Positions 433 through 18,549 of a stretch of 30,252 nucleotides of DNA are shown here, one piece after another. Origin of the DNA: an uncultured Selenomonadaceae bacterium. Its GTDB lineage: Bacteria > Bacillota > Negativicutes > Selenomonadales > Selenomonadaceae. Each line of letters opens with the position of its first letter. Within the stretch, counting starts at the first letter, position 1. The translations under genes and the position numbers were made by a program. The stretch spans positions 1-30,252 of the forward strand of contig CACZOL010000075.1 in the NCBI GenBank assembly GCA_902782705.1, given 5' to 3'. The notes beneath the pieces were generated by a model. The model ran no database searches. It had not been told where the DNA came from and saw only the letters and a list, made by a program, of their open reading frames with translations.

Positions 433-438
433 CAGTGG

Positions 439-559: not shown

Positions 560-581
560 CACAAAAAAGCAGGCACGGCAA
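553..581 (-). promoter_or_regulatory. Putative sigma-A promoter for gyrA
   Basis: TTGCCG (581-576), 17 bp, TATAAT (558-553), with an extended -10 TGn. Confidence 0.65.
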
Positions 582-607
582 AGCCTTTCTATGCCTTGCC
601 GCGCCTG
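563..607 (-). terminator. Rho-independent terminator after tonB
   Basis: Imperfect 15-bp inverted repeat (570-584 and 593-607) followed by T6 on the minus strand. Confidence 0.7.
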
Positions 608-649
608 TATCCAACGTGTTTCACGTGCAACATGCAAACGTATATGCGA

Positions 650-1399
650 TTATTCCAGCCGGAAAGTAAAAGGCTGATACGCATAGCAGCGCACAGGACG
701 CCCGTAGCCGTCAAGCCCCGGGCTGAAGCTGAATCCTTCCGCCGCTTCCATCGCCGCGCGATCCAACGCCTCGTTTCCCGAAGACTCCACCACGTCCACA
801 TCGTCCACGCCGCCTTCTTTATTCAGCAGGAAACGCACGACCACCGTCCCCTCAATGCCTTTTCGCTGGGCCGAATAGGGATACTCCGGCGCACGGGCGC
901 TCGTGACGCTTGGCGGCACGGCAGGCGATTCGATGGCGTCGCTGGCGGGAGGAATGCCCTGCGTCTCCCCGCTGCCGTCGGGATTCCCCTCTACAGAGCC
1001 GTTGGCGGCGTCTCCGGGGCCTTCGGCTGCCGCTCCGCCGCCGGCAGGGGCGGGAGGCGCGGGAGTCTCCGCGGGCGGCTGCGGCGTCGGCGCAGGCTGC
1101 GGTTCCGGCGTCGGCGGTTCTTCCGGAGGCTTCTCCTCCAGGATATCGTCCGGCAGCGGCGGAGGCGTCTCTTCCGGAGGCTTGGGCGGCGCTTCCGGCT
1201 GCGGCGGTACGGGCGGCGTGGGGACCGCAGGCGTTTTCGGAGCCGTGGATGCGCCCGGGGCGCCCACCAGCGCCACATCGTAAACGGCTTCCAGCGGCTC
1301 GTTTTTTGCAATACGAAGCGCCGCGAATCCGAGCAGCGCGCACACAATGATATGCACGACTACGGAAGCGACAATGCCTTTAGCCGTATTCCCCGTCAT
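650..1399 (-). CDS. tonB: Energy transducer TonB
   Basis: N-terminal TM helix (IVASVVVHIIVCALLGF, with SxxxH), Pro/Glu-rich linker, C-terminal TonB domain (PEYPYSAQRKGIEGTVVVRFLLNKEGGV); follows exbD. Confidence 0.92.
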   Translation of the reverse strand: MTGNTAKGIVASVVVHIIVCALLGFAALRIAKNEPLEAVYDVALVGAPGASTAPKTPAVPTPPVPPQPEAPPKPPEETPPPLPDDILEEKPPEEPPTPEPQPAPTPQPPAETPAPPAPAGGGAAAEGPGDAANGSVEGNPDGSGETQGIPPASDAIESPAVPPSVTSARAPEYPYSAQRKGIEGTVVVRFLLNKEGGVDDVDVVESSGNEALDRAAMEAAEGFSFSPGLDGYGRPVRCYAYQPFTFRLE

Positions 1400-1809
1400 G
1401 ATCCGCCTTCCTTATCCGTCGCGAGCCCCACGCGCGAAATCCCCGCCTTGCGGAACGAATCCAGCAAATGGATGACGGCGCGATACGGAACGCCCTCGTC
1501 GGCCCGAATGATCACGGCGAAATTCTCGTCCCGCTTCCGCTCCTCTTTCGCCTTTTCCATCAGCTCGTTTTCCTTGATGAGCTTATCCTGCAGCCAATAC
1601 ACGCCGTCCCTTTTGACGGTGACGGAAAATTTCGCCGCGCTTTGCGACTGCGTTTCGGTCGCGACGGGGAGCTTGACCGGAATCGTCCGCAGCTCGCTCA
1701 TATACATGGTGCTGACGATGAAAAAAATCAACAGCAGGAAAATCATGTCGATCATCGGGCTGAGCATAAGCTGCGGCGCGCTCTGCCCGCGTTTCTTCAG
1801 CTTGATCAT
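1396..1809 (-). CDS. exbD: Biopolymer transporter ExbD
   Basis: LSPMIDMIFLLLIFFIVST TM motif and IIRADEGVPY...LLDSFRKAGISRVGLAT C-terminus. Confidence 0.92.
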   Translation of the reverse strand: MIKLKKRGQSAPQLMLSPMIDMIFLLLIFFIVSTMYMSELRTIPVKLPVATETQSQSAAKFSVTVKRDGVYWLQDKLIKENELMEKAKEERKRDENFAVIIRADEGVPYRAVIHLLDSFRKAGISRVGLATDKEGGS

Positions 1810-2474
1810 AGCTTCGCCCCCTGCGGCACGGGATGACCGTGCGCCACTGCGCGTTTCCGATCAAGATTTTTCGCGATTGCCTCCAAGAGCGTATTCCCAA
1901 TCTCTTCCACGTTCAGGGAAATCGCCTTGAGCCGACGCATGAAATAAGCGTACATGCAGATAGCGACAATCGAGATGCAAAGGCCGAATACCGTGGTAAT
2001 CAACGCCTCGCCGATACCGGCGGTCACGGCCATCGGATTGTCCAGCCGCTGGCTGAAGCTGTTGAAGGAGGCAATCATGCCCGTCACCGTGCCGAGCAGA
2101 CCAAGCACCGGGGAAAGCGTTACGATCACGTTCAGATAATTGAGATTCCGCTCGAATTTATCCATGGCCCGTTCCGCCCGAACGCTGACGAAGTTCTCGA
2201 GGCGCTCGAAATTCCCGTGCCGCGCCATAACGATGGTGGCGAGCTTCGCCAGCTCGCCTTTCGTCGAATCAGCCAGCTGCTTCGCATTCCCCCAGTCGTC
2301 GCGTTCAATACAATCGCAGAACTCTCGCGTGAATGCCTTGCCGCTGTCATTCGTACGAAAGAACAGCCATCGCTCCACCGAGATGGCGACGGCAGCCAAG
2401 GAACAGAACAGCAGCGGGTACATCACAGGCCCGCCCTTGACAAAATAATCCAATCCGGCCGAAAAAATACTCAT
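1806..2474 (-). CDS. exbB: MotA/TolQ/ExbB proton channel protein
   Basis: GGPVMYPL, SPVLGLLGTVTGMI and GIGEALITTVFGL motifs. Start placed at ATG 2474 behind AGGAAGGAGA. Confidence 0.92.
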   Translation of the reverse strand: MSIFSAGLDYFVKGGPVMYPLLFCSLAAVAISVERWLFFRTNDSGKAFTREFCDCIERDDWGNAKQLADSTKGELAKLATIVMARHGNFERLENFVSVRAERAMDKFERNLNYLNVIVTLSPVLGLLGTVTGMIASFNSFSQRLDNPMAVTAGIGEALITTVFGLCISIVAICMYAYFMRRLKAISLNVEEIGNTLLEAIAKNLDRKRAVAHGHPVPQGAKL

Positions 2475-2531
2475 GACCAATCTCCTTCCTTATGTAAACC
2501 CAAAAATATATACGACATTCTACGATCCCCC

Positions 2532-2638
2532 CTTGTCGAGGGATTTTTTCGTCAGGCACGGAAAAGTGCTCGCAGTCGTAGTTGGAGCACTACGTCAAGA
2601 GCACTTTGACACAGCATGGCGGAAAAAGACCCGACAAG
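2532..2638. repeat. ~107-bp nested imperfect inverted repeat
   Basis: Arms CTTGTCG/CGACAAG (2532-2538, 2632-2638), AAAGTGCTC/GAGCACTTT (2563-2571, 2599-2607) and CGTAGT/ACTACG (2577-2582, 2589-2594). Confidence 0.7.
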
Positions 2639-2640
2639 AG

Positions 2641-3375
2641 CTATTCGCTATATCTCTTATAAATCGCTACCCCTACGGCGAAAAACAGCGCGCCCAATCC
2701 CGCCAATGTCAACACACTCTGCCAAAGGCCCGGCTCCCACGCCGCGCTTCGCATCATGCGGTTCAGCGCGCCGATCGGAAAAAACATCACGATATGCTGC
2801 GCAAAACGCGGCAGATTCTCCACGGGGAAAAACGAGCCGCCGAAAAACGTCATCGGCATGATCAAAAAATTATTCACAAACGCCACGTCGTCGGGCTGCG
2901 ACACAAGCAATCCCACGATCACGCCGAGCGCCGCGAAACAGAACGAGCCGAGGAAAGCGCCTGCCACAAGCGTCGCCCGAAGCTCAATCGCCCCGAATAC
3001 GCCCCACGCCATCAAGAATATCAGCGAGCCGAAAAAGACGCCGCGCGCCACGCCCGCGAGCACGATTCCCAAGATGACCTCCGCCGCCCGTACCGGCGAA
3101 AGCACGAGACTTTGAAAAACATGGTAATACATCCGGCCCACGCTGATGGAACCGGCGGTCTGCTGGAAAGCGTTGACCATGATCGTAATGGCGATGATGC
3201 CGCCCGCCAGGAACGGCAGATACCCGCCGGCAACCTCGACGCGGTTTCCCAGTCCGTAGCCGAACGCGAACAGATAGATGAACGGGGAAACGATGCTGGA
3301 AAAAATATAACCCATGCGTCCGATTTTTTTGTAGAGCATGAGCATCTCGCGGCTGAATACCGCATACGCGCCCAC
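2641..3375 (-). CDS. ABC-2 type exporter permease (NodJ/DrrB-like)
   Basis: Six hydrophobic segments, YLPFLAGGIIAITIM and PMTFFGGSFFPVENLP motifs typical of ABC-2 permeases; GTG start abuts the ATPase stop. Confidence 0.85.
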   Translation of the reverse strand: MGAYAVFSREMLMLYKKIGRMGYIFSSIVSPFIYLFAFGYGLGNRVEVAGGYLPFLAGGIIAITIMVNAFQQTAGSISVGRMYYHVFQSLVLSPVRAAEVILGIVLAGVARGVFFGSLIFLMAWGVFGAIELRATLVAGAFLGSFCFAALGVIVGLLVSQPDDVAFVNNFLIMPMTFFGGSFFPVENLPRFAQHIVMFFPIGALNRMMRSAAWEPGLWQSVLTLAGLGALFFAVGVAIYKRYSE

Positions 3376-4110
3376 TTACAGATCACCTCCGCGAGACAAG
3401 CGGATAAAGAGTTTTTCGAGATCGTCCGCGCCGTTTCCGATACGCTGCTGCAATTTTTCCTTCGTCTCGCTGACGACGAGACTGCCTTCCCTGAAAATCG
3501 CAATCCGGTTGCAAAGTTTTACCGCTTCTTCCATATAATGCGTCGTAAAGATGATCGTCTTCCCTTCCGCTGAGAGCGAGGAAATAATATCCCAAATCCC
3601 CTGCCGCACATCGGGGTCCAATCCGACGGTCGGCTCGTCCAGCAGAAGCAATTCCGGATTCGGCATCAGGCTCCTGGCTATCAACACCCGCCGCATCATG
3701 CCGCCGGACAGGCTCCGAATCGTCTTGGACTGCATATCTTCCAGCTCGAACCGCGCGATGGTCGCCTCCACCGTCTCCGAAAGAGCCTCCACGCCAAAGA
3801 GGCGCCCATACATCGTGAGGGCCTCCCGCACCGTGAACTCGCGCTCCAGATTGTTGTCCTGCGGCACGAGCCCCACAAGCCGCTTCAATGTCGTCGTGCG
3901 CTCCGCCGCGTTCTGCCCGAAAATGAACAGTTCGCCCTCTTCCGGCCTGACAAGTCCGGCAATAATCTTCATCAAAGTCGTCTTGCCCGCGCCGTTCGGC
4001 CCCAAAAGACCGAACACGCCGCCTGCCGGTATGGACAAATCCAGCGGCTGGAGGACCGTCGCGCCCTTATAGATTTTCTTGATCCCTCTTGCCTCTATCG
4101 CATATCGCAT
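3376..4110 (-). CDS. ABC-2 type exporter ATP-binding protein (NodI/DrrA-like)
   Basis: Walker A GPNGAGKT, signature LSGGM, Walker B LLLLDEPT, H-loop TTHYMEEA. True start taken as MRYAIE at 4110; the longer track ORF overlaps the upstream permease. Confidence 0.88.
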   Translation of the reverse strand: MRYAIEARGIKKIYKGATVLQPLDLSIPAGGVFGLLGPNGAGKTTLMKIIAGLVRPEEGELFIFGQNAAERTTTLKRLVGLVPQDNNLEREFTVREALTMYGRLFGVEALSETVEATIARFELEDMQSKTIRSLSGGMMRRVLIARSLMPNPELLLLDEPTVGLDPDVRQGIWDIISSLSAEGKTIIFTTHYMEEAVKLCNRIAIFREGSLVVSETKEKLQQRIGNGADDLEKLFIRLSRGGDL

Positions 4111-4121
4111 AAAGATTATCC

Positions 4122-5159
4122 TCAACGCATTACGTTGTGCGCGCGCCGAAGCAGCCAGAGAAAATACGGCGTCCCGATGAAAGCCGTCATGATACCGACG
4201 CGCACTTCCATCGGCGCGGCAATCACGCGGCCGACCGTATCGCAGAATACGAGAAACGCGCCGCCCGCCAACAAACTTGCCGGAAGCAGCAGCCGATGAT
4301 CGGGTCCGACAATGAGCCGCATCATGTGCGGCACGACAAGCCCTACGAACCCGATATTCCCGCTGATACAGACGCCCGTCGCCGTAACCAGCGAAGCGAT
4401 GGTCATCATGCCGAGCCGATACTTGGCGACCGGCATTCCGACGGCTTTCGCCTCGACGTCGCCGAGCACGAGAATATTCAAATGACGCGCCATCAGGATC
4501 ATCACGGCGGCGCCCAAGAGGATCGGCCCCGCGCCCATCGCCACATGTTCCCATCGCCGATAGTCAAGACCGCCGATCGTCCAGAAAAGATACTGCTGCA
4601 GTTTCTGCTCGCTGATTACGGTGAGGATGCCCGCCGTAACCGCGCCAAGCATCATTCCTACAACGACGCCGGAAAGAAGCAGCGTCATCATCGGAATCTT
4701 CCCGTGCCGCATCGCGAGAAAAACCGTCAGCGTCACAGCGGCCAACGATCCGACCAGCGCGCATATCGGCAGCGCGAAAAGGCTCACTTCACTGAGCCCG
4801 AACGCAATCGCCGCCACCGCGCCCACCGCCGCGCCGCTGGACACGCCGATGATGCCGGGATCGGCGAGCGGGTTGCTGAAGATTCCCTGCATGACCGTCC
4901 CCGAGGCGCCAAGTCCCGCGCCGACCATGAGCCCGACCAGCGTTCGCGGCAGACGGATATGAAAAAGCACCGCTTCCTGCTCCGGCGTCACAACGACGTC
5001 CGCAAAAAAGGGCAATCCCGCATACTGGCAAAACAGCGCGACAATATTCTTGAACGGAATATCAATCTGCCCCCACGACATCGAAAGCAGCGCAACAAGA
5101 ACAAATACCGCCGCCATCAGCAGGAAAAACACCTTGGGCGGGATACGTCCGATTTTCAT
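4122..5159 (-). CDS. FecCD/BtuC/HmuU-family ABC importer permease
   Basis: IRLPRTLVG, MQGIFSNPLADPGIIGVSSGA and GFVGLVVPHMMRLIVGPDHR motifs. Confidence 0.93.
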   Translation of the reverse strand: MKIGRIPPKVFFLLMAAVFVLVALLSMSWGQIDIPFKNIVALFCQYAGLPFFADVVVTPEQEAVLFHIRLPRTLVGLMVGAGLGASGTVMQGIFSNPLADPGIIGVSSGAAVGAVAAIAFGLSEVSLFALPICALVGSLAAVTLTVFLAMRHGKIPMMTLLLSGVVVGMMLGAVTAGILTVISEQKLQQYLFWTIGGLDYRRWEHVAMGAGPILLGAAVMILMARHLNILVLGDVEAKAVGMPVAKYRLGMMTIASLVTATGVCISGNIGFVGLVVPHMMRLIVGPDHRLLLPASLLAGGAFLVFCDTVGRVIAAPMEVRVGIMTAFIGTPYFLWLLRRAHNVMR

Positions 5160-6004
5160 TTTTCGTCCTCCCCGTTCCCAAGAATGGCATGTAAAAGCGC
5201 GGCTCTTTGCCCGTCGTCCGGCGGCGGCTCAGCAAAAACTTCCGCCGTCCCGGTCAACGGATTGCGCACGACGCGAACCGGAACGCCGTAACAACGGCTC
5301 AAATACTCCGACGTCATGACTTCTTCCGGCTTTCCGTCGGCTACGATACGATGATCCCCGACGAGCATCAGTCGCGAACAAAACTTCGCCGCCAAAGAAA
5401 GCTCATGGATAACCATCAAGACCGTTTTCCCCTGCGCGCAAAGCTCACGACAAAAACGAAAGATTTCCTCTTGATAGAATATATCCAAGCCCGTCGCCGG
5501 TTCGTCGAGAAACAGGAGCGGCGTCTGCTGCGCGAGCACTTTCGCCAAGAGCACGCGCTGCCGCTGTCCGCCGGAAATCATATCCACCGAACGATGGGCA
5601 AGATCCCGCACGCCGGTATATTCCATACAGGCGTCCACGATCCTCTCGTCCGCAGGACCTTCCTTTTCCCACCACTCCAGATGCGGATACCGCCCCGTCG
5701 TCACGATCTCCCGCACGCTGTATCCGAAAGCGATCTCCACATTCTGCTGCAAATATGCGACTTCAAGCGCAAATTCCCGACTCGTCATCGTCGCTGCATC
5801 GCGTCCGTTCAGCAGCACGCTGCCCGCGCGCGGGTCGAGGATTCCCCGAAGCGTCTTTAAAAGCGTGGATTTGCCCGCGCCGTTCGGCCCGATCAGTCCG
5901 ACCATTTCCCCCCGGCGCACTTCAAAAGACACGTCCGACAAAACATTTTTATGTCTTCCGTATCCGGCGGCAAGCTTCTCCGCCTGCAAAACAATTTCAT
6001 TCAT
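5156..6004 (-). CDS. FecE/BtuD/HmuV-family ABC importer ATPase
   Basis: GPNGAGKSTLL, ISGGQRQR, LFLDEPATGLD, VIHELSLAAKFC; overlaps the permease by 4 nt. Confidence 0.93.
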   Translation of the reverse strand: MNEIVLQAEKLAAGYGRHKNVLSDVSFEVRRGEMVGLIGPNGAGKSTLLKTLRGILDPRAGSVLLNGRDAATMTSREFALEVAYLQQNVEIAFGYSVREIVTTGRYPHLEWWEKEGPADERIVDACMEYTGVRDLAHRSVDMISGGQRQRVLLAKVLAQQTPLLFLDEPATGLDIFYQEEIFRFCRELCAQGKTVLMVIHELSLAAKFCSRLMLVGDHRIVADGKPEEVMTSEYLSRCYGVPVRVVRNPLTGTAEVFAEPPPDDGQRAALLHAILGNGEDEK

Positions 6005-6009
6005 TCCCT

Positions 6010-7011
6010 TTACTCCTCGCCGGAAAACGAGATGTGGCGGTTATCCTCCTGACGAAACGCGTCGCCGTAAGCGATAAAAGCAAGCTCTTGGACGCCGAAG
6101 ACGAAATCCTGGGAGCCGTTATAGATGTAACTCTCCCTTGGGTACTCCAGCCGCCGATTCTGTATGGCCTTTATCGTCTGGAGCGAAGGATCGTCAAGAT
6201 AGCTCCGGATAAACGCTTCCGTATCGAAATTTCCTTTATCGTCATAATTCGGCAGGAGCAAAATATCCGGATTGCTTTTGACAAGAAGCTCCTTTGTCAA
6301 AGGCTGGCCGTTTTTCAGTCCCACCGCCGCCGCACCGTTGACGACGCCCGCCCGCGTGCACATATCGTCGAACGCGCTTCCAATACCGCCGTAACTGGTC
6401 ATCACGGACAGCAGCACGACGCGCTTCCTCTCTTCGGCGGGAATCCGATCGATGCGGACAGTGATATCCCGCAGGATCTCTTCCATGCGGTCGAGCACCT
6501 TCGTCCCTCGCTCCGATTCCCCGACGCTGTCTGCAATCAAGCGAATACAGGCCCGGATATCCTCATAGGACTCGCCACGTCCCGCCACCACCACGGGAAT
6601 CCCCAGTGCGCGCAGCGCCGCTACCTGCTCCATATCCGTCCAGCCGTTGGCGATGACAAGATCGGGGCGCCAGCCCACGATTTGCTCCACCGTGGGATTT
6701 CCAACCTTCTCCGGCACGCGCTTCGCCTTTTCCACGACCGACGATTCTTTCGGATCGTCCAGGAAGCGGCTGATGGCCGCCATACGGTTGGTAGGCACCA
6801 CGCCCAGCAAGATCTCGTCCGTATATATGGCCAAAGATATAATCCGCTCGGGTTTTTGGGGAATCCGCACCGCCGTCCCTTGGGCGTCCGTTACGGTATA
6901 GCCTTCTTCTCCGCCTGACCTCTGAGACGGAGGCTTTCCACAGGACACGGTGAGCAGCACGGCAAAAAATACGAACACCGCGCATAAGCTGTACATGAGC
7001 CGACGCTTCAT
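6010..7011 (-). CDS. Fe/heme/B12-type (class III) substrate-binding lipoprotein 2
   Basis: Lipoprotein signal MKRR...LLTVSC, TVTDAQGTAVRIPQKPERIISL, EQIVGWRPDLVI. Start at ATG 7011 behind AAAAGGGG. Confidence 0.88.
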   Translation of the reverse strand: MKRRLMYSLCAVFVFFAVLLTVSCGKPPSQRSGGEEGYTVTDAQGTAVRIPQKPERIISLAIYTDEILLGVVPTNRMAAISRFLDDPKESSVVEKAKRVPEKVGNPTVEQIVGWRPDLVIANGWTDMEQVAALRALGIPVVVAGRGESYEDIRACIRLIADSVGESERGTKVLDRMEEILRDITVRIDRIPAEERKRVVLLSVMTSYGGIGSAFDDMCTRAGVVNGAAAVGLKNGQPLTKELLVKSNPDILLLPNYDDKGNFDTEAFIRSYLDDPSLQTIKAIQNRRLEYPRESYIYNGSQDFVFGVQELAFIAYGDAFRQEDNRHISFSGEE

Positions 7012-7153
7012 TATGACGTCCCCTTTTCTCTTAAAATCCCAAAGCGTCGAAGCACTTTGCCCTCCCAATGGGTATGCCCTTTGCGAGGCGGCCGATGGAC
7101 TCCCGGAGAGGGCCCGCCGAAGGCGGTGGGTATAATTTTGTGTCGTTGCGTTT

Positions 7154-7182
7154 ACGTTACCTTACACCTTTGAAGATGTCAA
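7154..7182 (-). promoter_or_regulatory. Putative internal sigma-A promoter upstream of SBP2
   Basis: TTGACA (7182-7177), 17 bp, TAACGT (7159-7154), with an AT-rich upstream tract. Confidence 0.6.
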
Positions 7183-7185
7183 TAA

Positions 7186-7219
7186 AATATTCAATATAAT
7201 ATTCGATTTAATGTTCAGA
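7186..7219. promoter_or_regulatory. Three direct repeats at 12-bp period, candidate regulator site
   Basis: AATATTCAAT (7186), AATATTCGAT (7198), AATGTTCAGA (7210), immediately upstream of the -35. Confidence 0.5.
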
Positions 7220-7221
7220 TT

Positions 7222-8214
7222 TCATTTTTTCGGCACAGCCGACAGATAGCGGTTCTTCGGCTGCGCAAAGGTGTCTCCGTAAAGGATGTACGCCGCTTCC
7301 TGCGCGCCGAACACGACGTTTTGCGAGATATTGTAAATATAATGCGCCCACGGATAGCAGACGTGCCCATCGCGCACGGCTTTCATGACTTGCAGCGACG
7401 GATCGCTCATATATTCCGCGCCATACTGCTGTTCTTTCGAGGCAGGATCCTCGTAGGACGGCAGGAAAATATAGTCGGGATTGCAGGCGATGAACTGCTC
7501 CTTCGTCATGGCCTCGCCGTTCCTGTTCCCCGCCAAAGCTTTCGCGTTCCTTGCGCCGGCATAAGAAAGCACGTCGTCGATCATACAGCCCGCGCCGCCG
7601 TAAGCCGGCATGATGGAAACCAGCGCCACCGTCGCGCCTTTTTTCTCTTTCGGGACCTCCTCGATCCGCTTCATCAAAGCGGCCAGTTCTTCGTCCATCA
7701 TCGCCACGAGCTTCTCGCCCCGCTCCTTCTCGTCCACGGCGGCCGCAATCAGCCGTACCGTGTCGCGCACCTCCGCAAAATTTCGCGGCGCTTTGCAGGT
7801 GACCACCGGGATTCCGAGATCGCGAAGCGCCGCAACCTTTTCAATCGGAATCCACGTCTGTACCAGCACGAGGTCGGGCTTCAGGGCCGCCACCGTCTCC
7901 ACCGAAGGATTTCGTATGATACGGTTCGGGATTTTCTCCGCAAGCTCGGTAACATTCGATCGCTTCGGATCGACAAAAGCCTCGTTGACGGCGACCATGC
8001 GCTCCGTCTCCACGAGTCCGAGCAGCACTTCGTCCGTTCCCGTCGTCACGGATACGATGCGTTTCGGCTTTGCCGGAATTTTTACCTCGTCCCCGCGCAC
8101 GTCGGTGACTACATGAAACTCCTCCGCCTTCGTCTGCACCGTCCCCGGCCCGCAAGCGGCACACAAAAGACACAGCGCCAAAAGGCAAAGCAAGCAAGCC
8201 GCCTTCTTAAGCAT
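7222..8214 (-). CDS. Fe/heme/B12-type (class III) substrate-binding lipoprotein 1
   Basis: Signal MLKKAACLLCLLALCLLCAAC, VTDVRGDEVKIPAKPKRIVSV, ETVAALKPDLVL; paralog of SBP2. Start 8214 overlaps the cobN stop. Confidence 0.88.
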   Translation of the reverse strand: MLKKAACLLCLLALCLLCAACGPGTVQTKAEEFHVVTDVRGDEVKIPAKPKRIVSVTTGTDEVLLGLVETERMVAVNEAFVDPKRSNVTELAEKIPNRIIRNPSVETVAALKPDLVLVQTWIPIEKVAALRDLGIPVVTCKAPRNFAEVRDTVRLIAAAVDEKERGEKLVAMMDEELAALMKRIEEVPKEKKGATVALVSIMPAYGGAGCMIDDVLSYAGARNAKALAGNRNGEAMTKEQFIACNPDYIFLPSYEDPASKEQQYGAEYMSDPSLQVMKAVRDGHVCYPWAHYIYNISQNVVFGAQEAAYILYGDTFAQPKNRYLSAVPKK

Positions 8215-11200
8215 CTGCCCGTTCCTCCATTTCACCTTCGACCTCCAGATACAGCTTGACAAGAGATTCCTGCATTTCCTGCGACGCGTTCCAGAGTCCG
8301 CGCTTCTGCGCCTCCAGCAATGTCTCCGCGATACGCCGGAGCGCCCAAGGATTCACATGGTTCATCCAGGCCCGCATCTCCGGATCAAGCGCATACCGCT
8401 TCGCATATTCTTCATACATCCAATCGTCCATGATATTGCTGGTTGCGTCCCACTCATAGCTATGGGCGACGACGTTCGCCAGCTCGGAGGCGCCTTTGTA
8501 TCCGTGACGCTTCATGCCGTCAATGAACTTCGGATTCATGATCTCGCCCCGGAAAATGCGTTTTGCCTCTTCGCGTACCGACCGCACCTGCACCCTGCGG
8601 CGATCGCTGGTATCCGTGCTGTACGATTTCGGCGCTTTTCCGGTCAGCGCGCGCACCGTCGCAATCATACCGCCGTGATAGGCGTTGAAGTCGTCACAGC
8701 TGAACATGTGCACTTCACGGTTATCTTCGTTCTTGATCGTGGCCTCGATTCCCCGCATACGGCGCTTGAAAACCTCCGGCTCGTATGCCCCGGGCAGCGC
8801 GTCAGAGCCGTAAGCCGTTCCCGAATAACGTACATAAACGTCCGCGATATCGCTCAGCTTTTGCCACTCATGCGTTGCGAGGATTGCCTGGACGCCCGCG
8901 CCATAAGCGCCCGGCGGATCGCCGAAAATCCGGTACGACGCCCGCGCCCACGCTTCCTCATGACTTGCGCCGTTCTCTTCCAGCCATGCGGCGTCTGCGA
9001 GAACATGCTTGCGGACGAAATTCTCTTCTTCCGGTTCGTCAAGCTCCCGCACCATCCGAACCGCCTCGTCCATCCAGCGGATCGCGTCGGGCATGCTGTC
9101 GCGGAAAAGCCCGCTGATACGCCCCGTGACGTCAATCCTCGGCCGTCCGAGCTCCGAAAGAGGAATGATCTCAAGTCCGACGACGCGCATAGACGGACGC
9201 TGCCAAACCGGGCGCACGCCCATCAAATACAAATACTCCGCCACGCATTGCCCATGGCTTCGCATATTGGCGCCCGACCAAAAGACCACGCCCACCGACT
9301 CCGGATAGTGGCCCTCGTCCGCAATAAAGCGTTTGATGGTCTCGTCGCCCAGCGTCTTCCCCATAGCCCAAGCTGCTTGGGTCGGCATCGTCCTCGGGTC
9401 CAATCCATAGAAATTTCTGCCCGTGGGCAGAAGCGCGTCCCCGTTCGTCGTCGGCGCACCTGCCTGACTCGGCTCGATATACTGCCCTTCCAAAGCCCGG
9501 AGCGTGTTTGAAAGCTCCTCTTCCGTACGCCGAAGCTTCGGCGCAAGGGTTTCGGATACCGTGCGCAGGATCTGTTCCATGCGTACCCGCCCGTCCTCGG
9601 AAATATTTGCAAGTTCCGGCAAGGAAAGCGCGTCTTTCACCGACGCTTCGGCATATCCGCGCTCGCCCATTTTTGCGATCATGTCATGCATGACTTGCTC
9701 CGCCGCGTCAAGCTTTTTCCCGTAGGATTCCCCGTCGGGGGCCAGCGCTGCACTTTCCTCCAAAGCGCGTTCATAGTCCAGTCCTTTCTCGGCCATGATG
9801 AGACGGATCAACGATTCCCTGTCCCCGTTATCCAGCCGCAGAAGCGCCATCAGGAACTCCGTGAAATCCTCGCCCGTCGGCATCTGCCCGAGAATATGGA
9901 GTCCGGTACGGATCTGCATATTCTTGATATCCGTCACGGCATTGTGCAGCTCGCCTACATAAGCGTCAAAATCCTCTTTCTCGGCAATATGGTCGAAATG
10001 GCACGCCGCAGCTTTTTCGCGCACAATGTTCTTTGCTTCGTCAAGACTGTCCGGTTGATTCGTGCGGAAATGGGCATACTCGTCCAGCGCGCTCTCCAGT
10101 TCAGCCATCTCCGCATACACGCCGGACAAGCGCATCGGCGGCGAAAGATGGCTGACGAGGCACGCCGCGCCGCGGCGTTTTGCCTGAAGCCCTTCTCCGA
10201 CAATCGTGATCCAGTACGGATAAATGTCCGGCAAATCCCCCAGGGCGATATCCGGATAGCACCCCTCGGAAAGACCGGTGCTCTTGCCCGGCAGCCACTC
10301 CAAAGAGCCGTGCGTTCCCACATGAATGACCGCGTCCGCATGCCAAAGGTCGCGCACCCAATGATAAAACCCGATATAATGATGCGGCGGCGCAAGATCC
10401 GGCGAATGCAGGATCTTGCCCGGGTCCTCGCCAAACCCGCGCGGCGGCTGCACCGTGAGAAACACGTTTCCGTTCATCGTGCCGGGAATCAAAAGATCTT
10501 CGTCATAAAGGAACACTTCTCCCGGCGCTTCTCCCCAGTCGACCGTCATTCTCTCCCGCGTCTCGGCAGGCAGTTTCTTGAAAAACGAGCGGTATTCCTC
10601 CGCCGTGAGACGTCCCGCCGCTGCTTCCGCCTGCTCCTCGCTGAGCATCTCACGATCGTTTGTCACATGGGCCGTCAGGATGTCTATCAGTTCCTGTCCG
10701 CTCTCCGGCACGAAATCCACCTGATATCCGGCTTCCTTCATCGCCGCCAGCATACGCCGTACGCTTTCCGGCGTATCCAGTCCCGCCGCGCTTCCGATAT
10801 TGGAATTTGTCGGCGGGTAATTGTGAAGCACGATCGCGATCCGCTTCTCGTCATTCTTCTTGCGTGAAAGCGCCGCCCATTTGCGCGCTTTCGACGCCAC
10901 CCGATGAACCCGCTCCGGGAGCGGCACAAAAGACGCGACGTCATCTTCTTTCCACGTCTTCGCCGCAATCGGCACGGAATGGATCGTCCCGTCAAACTCC
11001 GGCAGGCTCACGCTGATCGAGACTGCGGAAGGCTCAAGTCCCGCAGGCGACTCTGCCCAGCTCTCCTCGCTCCCGAGAATCGTATACGCCGTAAGAATCG
11101 GCACGCCGATCCTGGACAAATCCTCCGTCGCCGTTCCCGAAAGGTGCAAAGAAAACTTCGTCGTTGTCACAAGCACATCGACCAGCCGCTTCCCGTCGCG

Positions 11201-11905
11201 GTAAAAACAGCGGTCGACAGCATCCATGAAAGACGGCGACTGCAAACTCTCGTTACGAAACGTATTCGTGAAGACCGCGATGACGTTCATGCCCTCGTCT
11301 TCCAAGGCCCGAACCAGCGAGGTGTGATAAGCAAATTCCCCGGAAATCCACTCCGAGCGGTAAAAAATCACGCCGGCCGTCGGCTTCGCCGCGTCGTAAT
11401 GCGTGGAAAGATATCCGCCGATATCCTCCGGACTGCCCTCCCAATCGGGATGCCAGACGCCGTTCCACGGCAGAGGCGTCGGCGGCGCAGCTTTGTATGG
11501 GGTACCGCCGAACTCGCTGCCCAGCCAAAGCAGCAAATTGTAATGATTTTCCGCCCCGTCATAGCGAAAATATTGCCATGCCGTTACCGCCTGCGCATCC
11601 GAAACGCCGGCCATCACCTGATCGTCGCCAGCGTTTTCCACCAAAATCAGATAGCGGCTTCCCCGCTGCCGCAAAAAACGTACCGCCCGCTGCAAAAACG
11701 GATTGTCCAGCCCGCTTCCCATCCACAGGAAAAGGCTGAACTCCGCCTCGGACACGGCGTTTTTTATTTCCCCGGAAAAATCCGTCTGACCGTTTGCCGA
11801 AAAACAACCGGCCGCAAGCTCCGGCGCCTCTGCCGTCAGTCGCTTGCATTCCTGAGTCAGAAGGTTATAACTGCGCGCCACATTCGTGCATACAAAAATC
11901 TTCAT
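8207..11905 (-). CDS. cobN: CobN/magnesium-chelatase-H family protein (cobaltochelatase CobN-like)
   Basis: ~1230 aa with LHNYPP, VQPPRG, HVGTHGSLEWLPGK, LLPTGRNFY, NPKFIDGMKRHGYKGA and NPWAL motifs. Start is ATG 11905 (GGGG RBS) or 11917. Family is certain; the biochemical role is not. Confidence 0.9.
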   Translation of the reverse strand: MKIFVCTNVARSYNLLTQECKRLTAEAPELAAGCFSANGQTDFSGEIKNAVSEAEFSLFLWMGSGLDNPFLQRAVRFLRQRGSRYLILVENAGDDQVMAGVSDAQAVTAWQYFRYDGAENHYNLLLWLGSEFGGTPYKAAPPTPLPWNGVWHPDWEGSPEDIGGYLSTHYDAAKPTAGVIFYRSEWISGEFAYHTSLVRALEDEGMNVIAVFTNTFRNESLQSPSFMDAVDRCFYRDGKRLVDVLVTTTKFSLHLSGTATEDLSRIGVPILTAYTILGSEESWAESPAGLEPSAVSISVSLPEFDGTIHSVPIAAKTWKEDDVASFVPLPERVHRVASKARKWAALSRKKNDEKRIAIVLHNYPPTNSNIGSAAGLDTPESVRRMLAAMKEAGYQVDFVPESGQELIDILTAHVTNDREMLSEEQAEAAAGRLTAEEYRSFFKKLPAETRERMTVDWGEAPGEVFLYDEDLLIPGTMNGNVFLTVQPPRGFGEDPGKILHSPDLAPPHHYIGFYHWVRDLWHADAVIHVGTHGSLEWLPGKSTGLSEGCYPDIALGDLPDIYPYWITIVGEGLQAKRRGAACLVSHLSPPMRLSGVYAEMAELESALDEYAHFRTNQPDSLDEAKNIVREKAAACHFDHIAEKEDFDAYVGELHNAVTDIKNMQIRTGLHILGQMPTGEDFTEFLMALLRLDNGDRESLIRLIMAEKGLDYERALEESAALAPDGESYGKKLDAAEQVMHDMIAKMGERGYAEASVKDALSLPELANISEDGRVRMEQILRTVSETLAPKLRRTEEELSNTLRALEGQYIEPSQAGAPTTNGDALLPTGRNFYGLDPRTMPTQAAWAMGKTLGDETIKRFIADEGHYPESVGVVFWSGANMRSHGQCVAEYLYLMGVRPVWQRPSMRVVGLEIIPLSELGRPRIDVTGRISGLFRDSMPDAIRWMDEAVRMVRELDEPEEENFVRKHVLADAAWLEENGASHEEAWARASYRIFGDPPGAYGAGVQAILATHEWQKLSDIADVYVRYSGTAYGSDALPGAYEPEVFKRRMRGIEATIKNEDNREVHMFSCDDFNAYHGGMIATVRALTGKAPKSYSTDTSDRRRVQVRSVREEAKRIFRGEIMNPKFIDGMKRHGYKGASELANVVAHSYEWDATSNIMDDWMYEEYAKRYALDPEMRAWMNHVNPWALRRIAETLLEAQKRGLWNASQEMQESLVKLYLEVEGEMEERADA

Positions 11906-11931
11906 ATTTTTCCCCATCTTTCAATCAAGAC

Positions 11932-11953
11932 GAGGGCTGCCGAAGCAGCCCTC
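11932..11953 (-). other. Perfect 9-bp hairpin with UUCG loop between the small gene and cobN
   Basis: GAGGGCTGC-TTCG-GCAGCCCTC on the minus strand, no U-tract. Confidence 0.7.
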
Positions 11954-11959
11954 TGGGTT

Positions 11960-12274
11960 TCATGCCTTTTTGTGCTTTCCTGCCGTACCGGACATGATGC
12001 GCTCATACATCGAGTGAATCTCGTCCGCCGACGCGCCTTTCGCTTTTGCCGCCTTTACATGGACGATTGCGCTCTTGTATTTCTTGTGCGCCTCGTCGTT
12101 GGGGATTTTGTCGGTGTCCTTGAAGGGATCGAAGGCTATCACGCGCTTGAAGATCGCGTGAATCTCCTCAGAGCTCTTACCCTTCGCCTTGGCTGCCGCC
12201 GCGTGCCGCTTCGCGCGGTCGTAGCGGATCTTGCCGTGGGGTCCCTCTGGAATTTTCGGTGCCGGATGTGCCAT
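11960..12274 (-). CDS. Hypothetical 104-aa His/Lys/Ala-rich protein with two internal repeats
   Basis: ATG 12274 behind a strong RBS GGAAGGAGG; fills the gap between receptor and cobN. Repeats AAKAKGKSSEEIHAIFKR and AAKAKGASADEIHSMYER. Confidence 0.85.
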   Translation of the reverse strand: MAHPAPKIPEGPHGKIRYDRAKRHAAAAKAKGKSSEEIHAIFKRVIAFDPFKDTDKIPNDEAHKKYKSAIVHVKAAKAKGASADEIHSMYERIMSGTAGKHKKA

Positions 12275-12326
12275 TTCTCTCGCCTCCTTCCGTTTCAAAA
12301 ATGAACAGGATAACCCCGTTTTCATC

Positions 12327-14372
12327 TTAAAATTTTTGTGTGAAACTAAAAAGGAAGTTGCTGGGCGCTGAATAGTATTTGGAAGACGTATGGGAAATAA
12401 TGTCATGTCGGTCAAAGATGTTGTTCAGCGTCAGCTCGAACTCGGTTTTATCTGTCGGTGCATACCCCAACGTAAACGTCGTCAGGAAATACGGTTTTAC
12501 ATGGTAAGAATGTTGTTTAGTTGGCGTCATCACACGCGCTCCGAGAAACGAAGCACTGAGTGAAGCGCGCAATTTATCTTTCTTATAACTAATTTCTCCC
12601 GTAAGCTGGATTTTTCCAAACTTTCTATCCCAGTACGTTTTATCTGCATTCGCTTTAACCTTTGGATTTTGCCACGTCAGACCTGCATTATAGGAAAAAC
12701 CATTCTTGCTCTCTACTGCGTAAGAAAGCTCCAATCCCTCGTTCTTGAAATCTTCGTTTTTAAAAGTCCAATCGCCAGGGCCGTTATAAGTTGCAGAGAT
12801 GTTATCCTTTATGCGCATGACGAAAAGCGACGCCTTCCACGAATGTTTCCCCGTTATGTTTTTCCAGCCAATTTCGTAGTTGATACCCTTCTGTGGCTTG
12901 AGATCGGCAGGTTCAACCTCTTTGTATATGGCGTAAAGCGTCGGCATAACGAAGGACTGGGAAATATTTAAGAAGAGGCTATTCGTATCGTTCATTTTAT
13001 GCAGGAACTGTCCCGACGCACTGAAATTGCTGAAATTTTTCCCGCCGGAAGCACCTGTAGACCATGTTTCGCGCCCGCCAATGATGAACGAATTTTTCTT
13101 GTCGATTTTTTGATCCCATTGCGCGAAAACGCCCCAATTATTCCTGTCCTCATGCTTTACATCGGTCCCAGTTGTTTTAAATGTCGCCAATGCCCGAAAA
13201 GATTCATGTTGACCATTAAATCCCGCTGTTAACGTCCCTTTCCCTATTTTCCAATTCCGTTGCACATCTAAACCATAAGTACTGTTCTTTTCACGCGTAT
13301 CATACCACCGTGAAGCCACTGCCGGTACTCCGTAGGTATTGGTACGATATGTCGGACCATGTGCGCTCGTCATTCCCGTATTGAAGTAAGCACTGCCCTT
13401 CCAGTTTTTGTCACGATAATTAAGTTGCGCCATGTCACGCACTGTAGCATACTCACGCAAATAGAACGGACTTCCAACCAAATACTGATTTGCAGGATTT
13501 GTTGCACTTGCAATCCGGCGATCAAACTTTGCGCTCGTCTCATAATGGCCATACAGGAAACTCAGATGATCATTGAACTTGTAACTGATTGTCCCGCTCT
13601 GGTTCAAAATGTCCCGCCAATCCGTCCTCAAGTTGCCGCCAGTTACTTCTGAATAAGTCGCCCCTTTTCGTTCTTGCCACGAGTTGCGGTCATAGGTGAC
13701 GACCAAGCCCTCGGCTCCTACGTTCAAGTGATATTTCTGTTGTCCATAGTTTCCATAACCTACGGTGACAGAATTTTTCGCTTCCGTTTTCGTAATAATA
13801 TTGATGACACCTGCCATCGCCTCGCTGCCGTACAGCACCGAGCCGCCGCCTTTAACCACTTCAATGCGCTCAATTGTGTCGGCGGCAATATCTTGTAAAT
13901 GATACTTGCCACGTTGAGCAATCGGATTGCCGTTTACAAGAACAAGCGTTCCATTGTCAGTTCCACGAATATTGGCATTATTGGACATAGTTCCCATATC
14001 TACGCCGAGCGGCCCGAACGCTTCGTACGCGAAACCATTAATCTTTTGAAGCGCCTCCGCCGCATTTTTCGCGCCGCTGTCTTTGATGTCTTCTTCAGTA
14101 ATGACTTCCGTGGCCATCGGCACGTCCACTTCACGCTTTTCCGTACGGGTAGCCGTGACTACCACTTCGCCCATGGTGTAGGCGGGCGTCTCCGACGCGG
14201 AGCTCTCCTCAGCTTTCGTCGTCGTTGCCGCCGCCTCAACTTCTGCGGCTTCTGCGGAAAGAGGAAGAATAATACCCCCCCCGAGGGCAATAATCCCTGC
14301 TAAGAGGACATTTCTGCTCTTCGCCCCAATTTTGCTCAGCGACTTTCTGCCGAGCTTCCGACTTGCTTTCAT
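12327..14372 (-). CDS. TonB-dependent outer-membrane receptor
   Basis: Signal peptide, TonB box region TMGEVVVTATRT, plug motifs NIRG and IERIEVVKGGGSVLYGSEAMAGVINIIT, C-terminal Phe (FSFTQKF). Confidence 0.93.
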   Translation of the reverse strand: MKASRKLGRKSLSKIGAKSRNVLLAGIIALGGGIILPLSAEAAEVEAAATTTKAEESSASETPAYTMGEVVVTATRTEKREVDVPMATEVITEEDIKDSGAKNAAEALQKINGFAYEAFGPLGVDMGTMSNNANIRGTDNGTLVLVNGNPIAQRGKYHLQDIAADTIERIEVVKGGGSVLYGSEAMAGVINIITKTEAKNSVTVGYGNYGQQKYHLNVGAEGLVVTYDRNSWQERKGATYSEVTGGNLRTDWRDILNQSGTISYKFNDHLSFLYGHYETSAKFDRRIASATNPANQYLVGSPFYLREYATVRDMAQLNYRDKNWKGSAYFNTGMTSAHGPTYRTNTYGVPAVASRWYDTREKNSTYGLDVQRNWKIGKGTLTAGFNGQHESFRALATFKTTGTDVKHEDRNNWGVFAQWDQKIDKKNSFIIGGRETWSTGASGGKNFSNFSASGQFLHKMNDTNSLFLNISQSFVMPTLYAIYKEVEPADLKPQKGINYEIGWKNITGKHSWKASLFVMRIKDNISATYNGPGDWTFKNEDFKNEGLELSYAVESKNGFSYNAGLTWQNPKVKANADKTYWDRKFGKIQLTGEISYKKDKLRASLSASFLGARVMTPTKQHSYHVKPYFLTTFTLGYAPTDKTEFELTLNNIFDRHDIISHTSSKYYSAPSNFLFSFTQKF

Positions 14373-14410
14373 GACTCTTTCAAACCCCCTGTAATAATAG
14401 TAGTTTTTAA

Positions 14411-14431
14411 ATGAATATTCATATATTCAAT
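14411..14431. promoter_or_regulatory. Palindromic operator candidate downstream of the receptor promoter
   Basis: ATGAATATTCAT perfect 12-bp palindrome (14411-14422) followed by ATATTCAAT (14423-14431). Confidence 0.55.
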
Positions 14432-14444
14432 TCGGGACTTTCAA

Positions 14445-14474
14445 ACTATATCATTAAAAGTAAGGGGATGTCAA
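14445..14474 (-). promoter_or_regulatory. Putative sigma-A promoter of the receptor operon
   Basis: TTGACA (14474-14469), 18 bp, TATAGT (14450-14445). Confidence 0.7.
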
Positions 14475-14591
14475 TAAAAAATGAATTATTTTATATAATT
14501 ATTTCCTATGGACTACAATTATATGATAAAATAATTATAGATTCTTATTATTTTATAACTAAAAATGAATAATTTCAATTTATGTAGGTAT

Positions 14592-14619
14592 AAAAAAACC
14601 GCGAACAAGTCGCGGCTTT
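14592..14619 (-). terminator. Terminator after ppx
   Basis: CCGCGA/TCGCGG stem followed by T7 on the minus strand. Confidence 0.7.
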
Positions 14620-14642
14620 GTCAATACGATCCGACGGTTCTT

Positions 14643-15554
14643 TCACGCCCGCAATATTTCGCTGTACAAATATCCTTCCCGCACGCCGGAGTCGCTGTAG
14701 ACGATTTCCCGGCAGCCGAGCTTTTGCATCAGCGTGTCGGCGAGGATCAATCCGGAAAACAAGGTATGAATCCGATCCGGCGCCGCGAGCATCAGACGCT
14801 CCGCGTCTTCCTCCGCGAGAGGCTTGCCGGAAACGTAATGCTTGAGAATATCGCCGAAACGTCGCGTCTTCATGCGCGTTTCTTTTTCTTCCAACCCATA
14901 CATCAGACGATAAAGCGCAGAAGCGCCCTTGAAGGTGCCTCCGATGCCGCAGGCAACGACGTTCCGCATAAGCGGGAGCTTGCAGCAGACGATTTCTATC
15001 GCTTTGGCAACTTCCTTCCGGATTGCCTCGACTTCTTCCTGCGTCGGCAACAATCCGCGCACATAAGCGACTTTCAGGGAAAGCGATCCAAAAGGCAGAC
15101 TCATTTTTCGCACGACGCGGCGCGCGCGATACATCACGATCTCGGTGCTTCCGCCGCCGATGTCGATCAGTACACCGTCGTCCGCCGCCAGGTCATGCGT
15201 CGCGCCTACAAAATCAAAGGCCGCTTCTTCTTCGCCGGAAATGACACGAATCTTTACGCCCGTCTTTTCTTCTATTTTCGCGACGGCCTCGGCGCTGTTT
15301 TTCGCATTTCTGAGCGCCGCCGTCGTAAACGCGACGACATTTTGGACGCCCATGCCTGCAAGAAAATCGCGATATTCGCTGACGACTTCGCTGGCGCGCC
15401 GTATTCCTTCCTCCTGCATCACGCCTTCCTTCACATATGCGGATAATCCGACCGTATGCTTTCGTTTCATCACTTGCACCGCATGATCGTCGTGGATCTT
15501 GTAAACCGCCATTCGTATCGTATTGGAACCGACATCGATCATTGCCAACAGCAT
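14643..15554 (-). CDS. ppx: Ppx/GppA family phosphatase (short form, no HD domain)
   Basis: MIDVGSNTIR, ISGEEEAAF, DIGGGSTE and GVREG ASKHA motifs. Confidence 0.88.
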   Translation of the reverse strand: MLLAMIDVGSNTIRMAVYKIHDDHAVQVMKRKHTVGLSAYVKEGVMQEEGIRRASEVVSEYRDFLAGMGVQNVVAFTTAALRNAKNSAEAVAKIEEKTGVKIRVISGEEEAAFDFVGATHDLAADDGVLIDIGGGSTEIVMYRARRVVRKMSLPFGSLSLKVAYVRGLLPTQEEVEAIRKEVAKAIEIVCCKLPLMRNVVACGIGGTFKGASALYRLMYGLEEKETRMKTRRFGDILKHYVSGKPLAEEDAERLMLAAPDRIHTLFSGLILADTLMQKLGCREIVYSDSGVREGYLYSEILRA

Positions 15555-15797
15555 CTTTTCACCTCCGGCCTGCCTATTCTATTTCCACGCCGACTGTAAT
15601 TTTCCTCTAAAAATTTCATCTATGTCTTTTTTCCTAAAAAATTTTCTACATTTTATCTGAAAAATCTATCCTCTGCTATTTCTTTTCTTTCCTCAATATG
15701 GTACAATGACAGAAATACTAAATTAGACCTATAAAATTTAAAATGATGGAAGCACGTGCATTCTTGCGTAACCAATACAAAGTGAGGAGACCGCGAC

Positions 15798-16364
15798 ATG
15801 AAAAACAAACTTTATGCCCTTGTAGGTCCGCACGCAAGCGGAAAAACAGCAATCATTCGTCAACTGATGAAGCACGGCGTCAATTATATCCCGCTCTATA
15901 CGACACGGTCGCCGGAAGCATACGCGAATAATCCCGTCGGAGCCGCCACCATGTATCGTTTCGTCGATAAGATTGATTTCTTCAAACAGGATTTTCTCGT
16001 TAAGATTACTTATAAAGGCGAATATTACGGCATGATGAAAGAGGAAATCCTGAACGCGCTGCAGAACCATAAAAACAGCGTCATCATTTCCGACGCGCAG
16101 GGTATCAAGCAGCTCTCAAAGCTTCTGAAAGACAGCTTTGAATCCATTTACATCATGGTCGACTATGTCACGCTCGTCGAGCGCATGCTGATGATGAAGC
16201 ATACGAACGACGAAATCAAGTATCATATCGAATATGCGGAAAGCAACGGCGAATTCGACACATGGAAAATCGCCAATCACGTCGTGAAGAACATCATTTC
16301 TTTCGACTCGTCGGTCAACCAGATTCTCGCCATTCTCGGACTGACCGTGCCCATCACCAAATAA
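15798..16364 (+). CDS. Divergent guanylate kinase-like protein
   Basis: P-loop GPHASGKT, YTTR, GEYYG and DAQG motifs of the guanylate kinase fold; several canonical residues are altered. Confidence 0.75.
   Translation: MKNKLYALVGPHASGKTAIIRQLMKHGVNYIPLYTTRSPEAYANNPVGAATMYRFVDKIDFFKQDFLVKITYKGEYYGMMKEEILNALQNHKNSVIISDAQGIKQLSKLLKDSFESIYIMVDYVTLVERMLMMKHTNDEIKYHIEYAESNGEFDTWKIANHVVKNIISFDSSVNQILAILGLTVPITK

Positions 16365-16488: not shown

Positions 16489-18549
<2,061 letters not shown>

Follow-up and report, generated by a model that had tools for sequence, protein, structure and literature searches.

A TonB/ABC import operon from a cattle-gut member of the Selenomonadaceae that encodes a CobN-like large chelatase subunit and no motor genes

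The stretch of DNA analyzed here, referred to throughout as the window, comprises 30,252 nucleotides of contig CACZOL010000075.1 (positions 1 to 30,252, forward strand; GenBank assembly GCA_902782705.1) from an uncultured member of the Selenomonadaceae, known as a cattle-gut metagenome-assembled genome (MAG) of 1.62 Mb in 234 contigs that is 77.6% complete. On the minus strand of the window, positions 8207..11917 encode a CobN-like protein of 1236 amino acids, assigned by profile and residue matches as the predicted cytoplasmic large subunit of a chelatase. Its gene is the third of 12 co-directional genes that make up an import operon (650-14372), all of them intact and with starts and stops that overlap or are closely spaced. 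The operon is a complete import route from the outer membrane to the cytoplasm, in which the CobN-like protein is the only cytoplasmic enzyme. Profile scans of the window found no gene for ChlI, ChlD, CobS or CobT and no cob or cbi biosynthetic gene, as an initial annotation of this DNA had stated. That annotation had also called the protein stand-alone, which holds insofar as the window contains no AAA+ gene and fails insofar as the gene is embedded in the 12-gene operon. We assign a probability of roughly 0.55 to the reading that the protein serves as large subunit in an ATP-driven chelatase acting on imported tetrapyrroles, probably of the corrinoid type, and that it uses ChlI/ChlD in trans.

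The CobN-like gene is a single intact open reading frame of 1236 codons. Its product, full-length as initially described, matches PF02514 (CobN-Mg_chel) from end to end (1292.5 bits, profile positions 1-1089 of 1090) and passes the TIGR02257 cobalto_cobN equivalog model (946.4 bits, cutoff 822.05); it scores below the cutoffs of the other CobN models (NF004646 and others). Orthologues align from its residues 4-7, and the true start may be Met5. The HVGTHG motif at residues 532-537 corresponds to the HxG(T/A)HG motif with its catalytic His (as defined in PMC12583661). Both H536 and its Glu partner E575, 39 residues downstream, are invariant in 22 of 22 aligned CobN-like proteins, and D1075-D1076 are further active-site residues. 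By alignment and constant spacing, H536, E575 and D1075 are the equivalents of H554, E593 and D1100 of Brucella melitensis CobN, which line a two-cobalt (Co2+) site (bioRxiv 10.64898/2026.07.21.739949). The loop that in HmuS bears the second axial ligand, here residues 1072-1083, reads FSCDDFNAYHGG and resembles in alignment the loop DSDDYFQYHGG of Mycobacterium tuberculosis CobN, with which it has the DD-x4-HGG motif in common. Judged by these residues the active site is of the CobN type, not the HmuS type, and in its apparent chemistry the protein resembles a cobalt chelatase. The scores against solved structures run from 745 bits for M. tuberculosis CobN (7c6o) and 633 bits for B. melitensis CobN (9uk9) to 545 bits for ChlH (4zhj) and 400 bits for HmuS (9d26). 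The ChlH/BchH subunit of Mg-chelatase is likewise a six-domain large subunit dependent on ChlI/ChlD; unlike ChlH, in which the corresponding loop carries H1174/D1177, the window protein has the CobN-type DD motif, and the window organism is no phototroph. Finally, of the 149 columns that are invariant in the 21 other CobN-like proteins, the window protein retains 146 and has conservative substitutions at the other three. Thirteen of the retained columns fall within the final helices of domain VI (1189-1231), which form the adaptor-docking surface in the Brucella holoenzyme; their retention fits the continued use of a ChlD-type adaptor, although it could be purely structural.

The score above the TIGR02257 cutoff and the closeness to M. 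tuberculosis CobN would also suit the canonical biosynthetic CobN of the late-cobalt-insertion (aerobic) vitamin B12 pathway, a reading that we regard as very improbable. The CobNST and CobN-ChlID cobaltochelatases share with the window protein their six-domain full-length architecture, the HVGTHG motif and a soluble, cytoplasmic form. Unlike theirs, however, the window gene lies in a TonB/ABC (ATP-binding cassette) import operon and not in a cob operon, it has neither motor nor adaptor in cis, and its substrate is presumably imported, not the hydrogenobyrinic acid a,c-diamide that the cell itself makes. The host, moreover, uses the CbiK (early insertion) route: its genome carries two CbiK genes, and CbiD of the anaerobic route, not found in the host assembly, is present in same-genus genomes. 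Searches of the host's own genome returned no chelatase CobS, and the CbiB and CobS that it has belong to nucleotide-loop assembly. The Selenomonadaceae are an obligately anaerobic gut lineage. The earlier view that the protein does not take part in de novo late-insertion B12 synthesis therefore stands.

A second alternative concerns the motor. HmuS of the Bacteroidota dechelates heme without an AAA+ motor and so shows that the fold can do this (PMC12583661), and the window protein could by analogy be a partner-less member of the CobN lineage, acting as an ATP-independent dechelatase, metal exchanger or tetrapyrrole holder for imported heme, porphyrin or corrinoid. We think this unlikely, and rather less likely still its sharper form, in which a motor-independent cytoplasmic (de)chelatase or exchanger would represent a second, independent origin of motor-free chemistry in the class I chelatase fold beside HmuS. 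Together with BtuS1 and BtuS2, HmuS shares with the window protein the superfamily, the fold and the first active-site His (HxGxHG) with its Glu partner; the HmuS gene, too, lies beside genes for a TonB-dependent receptor and ExbB/ExbD-type proteins, and its substrate is an imported tetrapyrrole. HmuS is a periplasmic protein of ~1450-1470 amino acids with N- and C-terminal transmembrane anchors, a 120-residue Met-rich insert in domain IV, a Met-79/His-254 heme site and an LSLDHxxEFMGG motif that bears His-1209, the second axial ligand, and Glu-1212 (PMC12583661; PMC6460266; PMC13227078). Three of these features, the motif, the insert and the anchors, are absent from the window protein, which has 1236 amino acids against ~1469 and a Met content of 3.2%: in FSCDDFNAYHGG, in the same register, an Asp replaces His-1209 and an Ala replaces Glu-1212, the set of carboxylates and His being of the CobN type, and both the Met-rich insert and the anchors are missing. 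Because insert, anchors and motif are all missing, the protein is not an HmuS. Its highest Kyte-Doolittle score over 19 residues is 0.89, which indicates no transmembrane helix, and its N-terminus is polar and without a signal peptide, whereas the receptor and both binding proteins of the operon have leaders; the protein is hence taken to be soluble and cytoplasmic, in agreement with the initial annotation, and, unlike in the HmuS system, an ABC importer would carry its substrate into the cytoplasm.

The other genes of the operon, all on the minus strand, fit such a transport role. At the upstream end lies the gene of a TonB-dependent outer-membrane receptor with a signal peptide and supporting profile matches (12327..14372), followed by that of a conserved 104-residue His/Lys-rich helical protein with an internal duplication (11960..12274), which immediately precedes the CobN-like gene. 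Downstream of the latter come two substrate-binding proteins of the Peripla_BP_2 family, each with a lipoprotein leader: PBP1 (7222..8214), whose start overlaps the stop of cobN, and PBP2 (6010..7011). Profile matches identify the next four products as an importer ATPase of the corrinoid/heme/iron-chelate type (5156..6004), a FecCD/BtuC-type importer permease (4122..5159), a DrrA/NodI-like ABC-2 ATPase (3376..4113) and an ABC-2 permease (2641..3375), and the last three as ExbB (1806..2480), ExbD (1396..1809) and TonB (650..1399). TonB machinery is to be expected here because the Negativicutes, to which the host belongs, are diderm Bacillota, and it is in this sense that the earlier attribution to the Bacillota was right. 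A CobN homologue that lies beside a BtuFCD-type importer and/or a TonB receptor, outside cob operons, is found here and at no fewer than 15 related loci. The operon context indicates that the protein acts on imported tetrapyrroles, as had been proposed. As to the receptor, the best model among curated NCBIfam entries is TonB-B12, far below its cutoff, and the protein is 49% identical to a receptor in the Schwartzia supercluster.

The layout of the operon is reproduced in public metagenomes. In the run that holds it best, contigs tile nearly all of 400-15000 at 99% identity or more, lacking a listed contig piece at ~3441-3537 and 7428-7484, and they span the junctions from the receptor through the 104-residue gene to CobN, from CobN to PBP1 and from PBP1 to PBP2. 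Since contigs bridge these key junctions, the layout is no misassembly and no gene is hidden at them. The CobN-like gene itself occurs in near-identical form in at least 14 DNA runs (bovine or other gut metagenomes) from at least eight studies, and also in contigs of two RNA libraries.

Proteins of this kind are known from comparative genomics. Transport-linked CobN-like proteins were termed BtuS by Rodionov et al. (2003), with a predicted role in salvage, as that study is cited in PMC6460266, and operon-2 of Dehalobacter restrictus combines CbiZ, CobN and Mg-chelatase subunits with FepBCD/BtuCDE-like transporters (PMC4285132). The window protein belongs to this kind and shares with it the association of a CobN homologue with BtuFCD-type importers, the predicted salvage role and a Firmicutes-type anaerobic host. 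Unlike the Dehalobacter operon, that of the window contains neither CbiZ nor Mg-chelatase subunits, and unlike the transport-linked group it has no cobalamin riboswitch and possesses an outer-membrane receptor and TonB system of its own.

The closest orthologues come from Schwartzia, Megamonas, Selenomonas and Mitsuokella. In a tree of 23 CobN-like proteins the window protein falls within a nine-member clade, here called type A, with 100% support in the Shimodaira-Hasegawa-like approximate likelihood ratio test (SH-aLRT). Five other members carry ChlI, ChlD, CbiZ and NifH/D/K-like genes in one operon, at loci of Schwartzia (L006), Megamonas (L007), Selenomonas (L008 and L014) and Mitsuokella (L010): CbiZ is upstream, and the orthologue of PBP1, which stands downstream of the type A CobN in all type A loci, is accompanied by a ChlI-like AAA+ protein, a ChlD-like AAA+/VWA protein, a NifH-like and two NifD/K-like proteins. 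A further locus (L028) has ChlI, ChlD and NifH/D-like genes within the fetched stretch, and on two short contigs (L009 and L011) CbiZ and Nif-like genes are seen. Cobalamin riboswitches head the type A operons wherever the operon head was captured (L006, L008 and L028). The sister-genus clusters also hold a BtuFCD-type importer and a TonB receptor (L006:884-23699; L008:384-20038; L028:5999-19995; L007, L010 and L014). Since five other members keep ChlI/ChlD in the operon, the ancestral type A module included motor genes of its own; relative to the sister genera, the window operon has lost the motor genes, CbiZ, the Nif-like genes and the riboswitch. The pairing of a class I chelatase with a nitrogenase-like reductase recalls the synthesis of chlorophyll and of F430, but here it is linked to import and, at the loci with a riboswitch, to B12 sensing. 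No paper on this sister-genus module came up in literature searches that combined a nitrogenase-like enzyme either with a cobalamin riboswitch or with CobN plus CbiZ.

The presence of CbiZ and of cobalamin riboswitches in the sister genera suggests that the type A module is one for the salvage or repair of corrinoids (B12-type), not heme. Riboswitch control and CbiZ recur in orthologous and paralogous operons, and together with the precedent of D. restrictus operon-2 (PMC4285132) they point by association to a corrinoid rather than heme as the substrate of the window protein; the sub-threshold match of the receptor to the TonB-B12 model gives weaker support. An analogy with a heme dechelatase is not supported on two counts: the second His and the Glu are replaced, with no Met-rich insert or anchor, and related operons are under cobalamin riboswitches.

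Where, then, would the motor come from? We surveyed 151 genomes of the family from 40 genera, in which relatives are non-independent samples. A CobN-like gene is present in 43 of the 151, and 40 of these 43 also have ChlI/ChlD; the three without are the window MAG and two genomes of 55% and 86% completeness. Put otherwise, CobN-like and ChlI genes occur together in 40 of the 42 other genomes and in all 29 high-quality genomes that have a CobN-like gene (29/29), both are confined to the same 11 of the 40 genera, and no complete genome in the sample has a CobN-like gene without a motor. This perfect co-occurrence in complete genomes speaks against a partner-less protein, and since ChlI/ChlD are in the operon of each orthologue for which enough context is available, the earlier proposal that the protein works without AAA+ partners is not supported.

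The 1.62-Mb assembly of the host, searched with TIGR02030 (ChlI), with TIGR01650 (CobS) and by tblastn with the Schwartzia ChlI, ChlD, NifH/D/K-like and CbiZ proteins, contains none of these partners; the in-trans partner is accordingly inferred, not seen. The sole strong PF01078 match, a 482-residue frame on contig C147, was taken as ComM/YifB-like and rejected as ChlI. Same-genus genomes, however, carry a paralogue, type B, that is 44-46% identical to the window protein and lies in the order PBP-CobN(B)-ChlI-ChlD, PBP being a binding-protein gene. Contig C151 of the host terminates inside such a gene, whose product is 82-86% identical to the binding protein preceding CobN(B) in three related sequences (G007, G088 and L035) and 70-76% identical to more distant copies in three others (L036, L039 and L040). 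A second CobN follows this gene in 7 of the 7 related sequences that have downstream DNA; ChlI-ChlD then follow in G007, G088, L035 and L039/L040, and L036 ends inside CobN(B). In G132, the nearest relative, a contig collinear with C151 runs on through the binding-protein gene and ends after 390 residues of CobN(B). The simplest and most likely reading of this synteny is that a CobN(B)-ChlI-ChlD locus lies just beyond C151, unassembled or unbinned; a metagenome scan with the C151 binding protein returned only other species (up to 86% identity), which supports the synteny and leaves the gap in place. With the MAG at 77.6% completeness and C151 breaking off at the very point at which relatives have CobN(B)-ChlI-ChlD, absence of the partners is not claimable for the organism, true as it is of the operon and the assembly; this qualifies both the initial description of a chelatase without ATPase partners and the genome check then suggested, which found none of the chelatase ATPases and two CbiK genes. 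Sharing of a motor has parallels in complete genomes. In Schwartzia, two ChlID sets stand against three full-length CobN-like genes. The only ChlID set of Megamonas (100% complete) is at the type A locus, and this genome has a second import locus without ChlI/ChlD in cis (L048, G029:C67, 8631-18014, minus strand), ordered riboswitch, receptor, PBP, riboswitch, CobN-like gene, PBP, PBP and, further on, ABC-2 genes, so that its CobN-like gene is an orphan directly behind a cobalamin riboswitch. Given these ratios, several CobN-like subunits can share fewer motor sets.

With these data in hand the remaining support for a partner-less protein can be weighed. ChlI/ChlD are in neither the operon nor the assembly, the loss of the riboswitch and CbiZ would be compatible with a change of role, and the ABC-2 pump could export a stripped macrocycle; in a leave-one-out comparison, furthermore, 86.7% of the positions that are invariant in five other type A proteins are retained by the window protein, against 95-99% for each of those five. 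The pump and the His-rich helper, however, also occur in clusters that have ChlI/ChlD, and a hidden ChlID locus is predicted from the break in C151. That the leave-one-out figure is lower is to be expected because the window lineage has no sampled sister, and accelerated evolution of the window protein is not supported, its root-to-tip distance of 0.49 lying inside the clade range of 0.27-0.55. The step from missing partners to a dechelatase is not supported.

The preferred reading, an ATP-driven chelatase with ChlI/ChlD in trans, may then be set out as a pathway. A tetrapyrrole would be taken up by the TonB-dependent receptor, powered by ExbB-ExbD-TonB, and passed to the two lipoprotein binding proteins, the FecCD/ABC importer and finally the CobN-like protein, a large subunit of the CobN/ChlH type (class I chelatase) that would bind tetrapyrrole and metal in the cytoplasm; the same operon also encodes a small His-rich helper and an ABC-2 pump. 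The window lineage would have lost motor, CbiZ, reductase and riboswitch from the operon, and its CobN-like subunit would rely on ChlI/ChlD supplied in trans by the CobN(B)-ChlI-ChlD locus that is typical of the genus and that would lie past the end of C151. The gene would thus look partner-less because the ATPase genes left the operon and the second chelatase locus falls in an assembly gap. Family, cellular location, operon, clade, active-site residues, the co-occurrence with ChlI/ChlD and the contig break rest on the data themselves; the use of ChlI/ChlD in trans, the corrinoid substrate and the direction of the reaction, be it cobalt insertion or exchange, are what we infer.

Several points weigh against this reading. 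No ChlI, ChlD, chelatase CobS/CobT, CbiZ or Nif-like gene is in the 1.62-Mb assembly, and a type A CobN is presumed to work with ChlI/ChlD of type B, the ChlI proteins of the two types being ~66% identical. Chelation would require a metal-free or mis-metalated corrinoid to be on offer in the rumen. NCBIfam models place the receptor and the binding proteins in neither the corrinoid, the heme nor the siderophore class, all scores being far below cutoff, and the only assayed branch of transport-linked CobN homologues is HmuS of the Bacteroidota. The operon, lastly, has an apparent protein operator instead of a cobalamin riboswitch, so that its link to B12 rests on orthologues.

This last point follows from the regulatory elements of the operon. 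Rfam searches found no riboswitch, either at the gathering threshold over the window or at E-values up to 1 over 11800-15800, and a consensus search allowing three mismatches found no Fur box. The receptor gene is preceded by a promoter-like TTGACA-18-TATAGT followed by GAATAT direct repeats (14412..14474, minus strand), and a second promoter-like site with the same repeats lies at 7154..7207 (minus strand). The sequence ATTGAATAT occurs exactly twice in the window (14412-14431 and 7187-7207), a count reached in 7 of 100 shuffles. The GAATAT repeats may be a putative operator for a regulator that replaces the riboswitch control of the relatives.

The 104-residue protein contains two copies of an AAKAKG-x4-EIH-x-[IM][FY][KE]R[IV] repeat, and its homologues in Schwartzia and Megamonas, at 61-68% identity, are likewise encoded upstream of the type A CobN. 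Between the small gene and cobN lies a 9-bp GC-rich hairpin (11932..11953, minus strand), possibly an attenuator or processing site. In an RNA library one contig spans exactly the 104-residue gene at a depth of 28.6, the highest there, against 3-5 for the cobN pieces, which suggests that the small protein is expressed above CobN.

The operon is variable between close lineages. In the nearest relative, G132 (GyrB 97% identical), gyrA and ppx are ~370 bp apart (L043, G132:C94:13592-14388), and the space between them contains a 175-bp remnant matching window positions 6854-7028 (PBP2 residues 15-71, 86% identical). The whole 14-kb operon (428-14425 compared) has therefore been deleted in G132 and is dispensable. 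Such a deletion with its PBP2 scar, the loss of five genes and the riboswitch relative to the sister genera and a strain-variable receptor junction could mean that the window operon is itself the decaying remnant of a stripped ancestral module on its way out, with a CobN-like protein that at most binds a ligand. We consider this improbable, more so than a partner-less but active protein: all 12 genes are intact at tight or overlapping spacing, the 1236-codon frame and the superfamily-invariant residues have been kept, and the gene recurs nearly unchanged across runs and studies.

The receptor stretch 12575-14035 is uncovered in a second DNA run and in two RNA libraries that do cover cobN, and one contig, with a loose end at 12274, ceases to match the window immediately upstream of the small gene; the receptor joined to the operon seems to differ between strains. 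GC content drops at ~12.3 kb from 58% to 47% in the receptor stretch. Horizontal acquisition of the CobN part was considered on this basis and rejected, 58% being set against a genome mean of 55.8%, with only the stretch from the receptor to dnaA lower.

The operon, flanked by ppx (14643-15554) and the 5' end of gyrA (1-354), lies near a replication-origin gene set that comprises dnaA (22433-23986), dnaN (21083-22198), recF (19727-20836), a gene for a DciA-domain protein (18804-19730) and gyrB (16489-18534), and GC skew switches sign near 22-23 kb. Elsewhere in the host assembly, its only cobalamin riboswitch (contig C62, L029:9414-9589) heads three genes on the minus strand of that locus: a CbiK with a clear Sec signal peptide (7503-8510), a short CobN-like protein of 364 residues that matches only parts 486-672 and 989-1087 of the profile (6353-7447) and a flavodoxin-like gene (5745-6428). 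C62 would thus place a predicted periplasmic CbiK and a mini-CobN under B12 control, and in Schwartzia (L006:884-5389) a CbiK gene and a short CobN-like gene each stand behind a cobalamin riboswitch of their own.

CobN homologues linked to transport are common among gut anaerobes, and a role for them in the salvage of metallated tetrapyrroles has been predicted since 2003. The automatic label "cobaltochelatase subunit CobN" can falsely credit an anaerobe with the aerobic B12 route. Within this family the window operon is a clean natural variant, in which the import route and the large subunit have been kept and the motor, CbiZ, the nitrogenase-like reductase and the riboswitch are gone. If ChlI/ChlD are truly absent from the organism, the protein would represent motor-free chemistry within the CobN lineage; if they come in trans, one motor would serve several substrate-specific large subunits.

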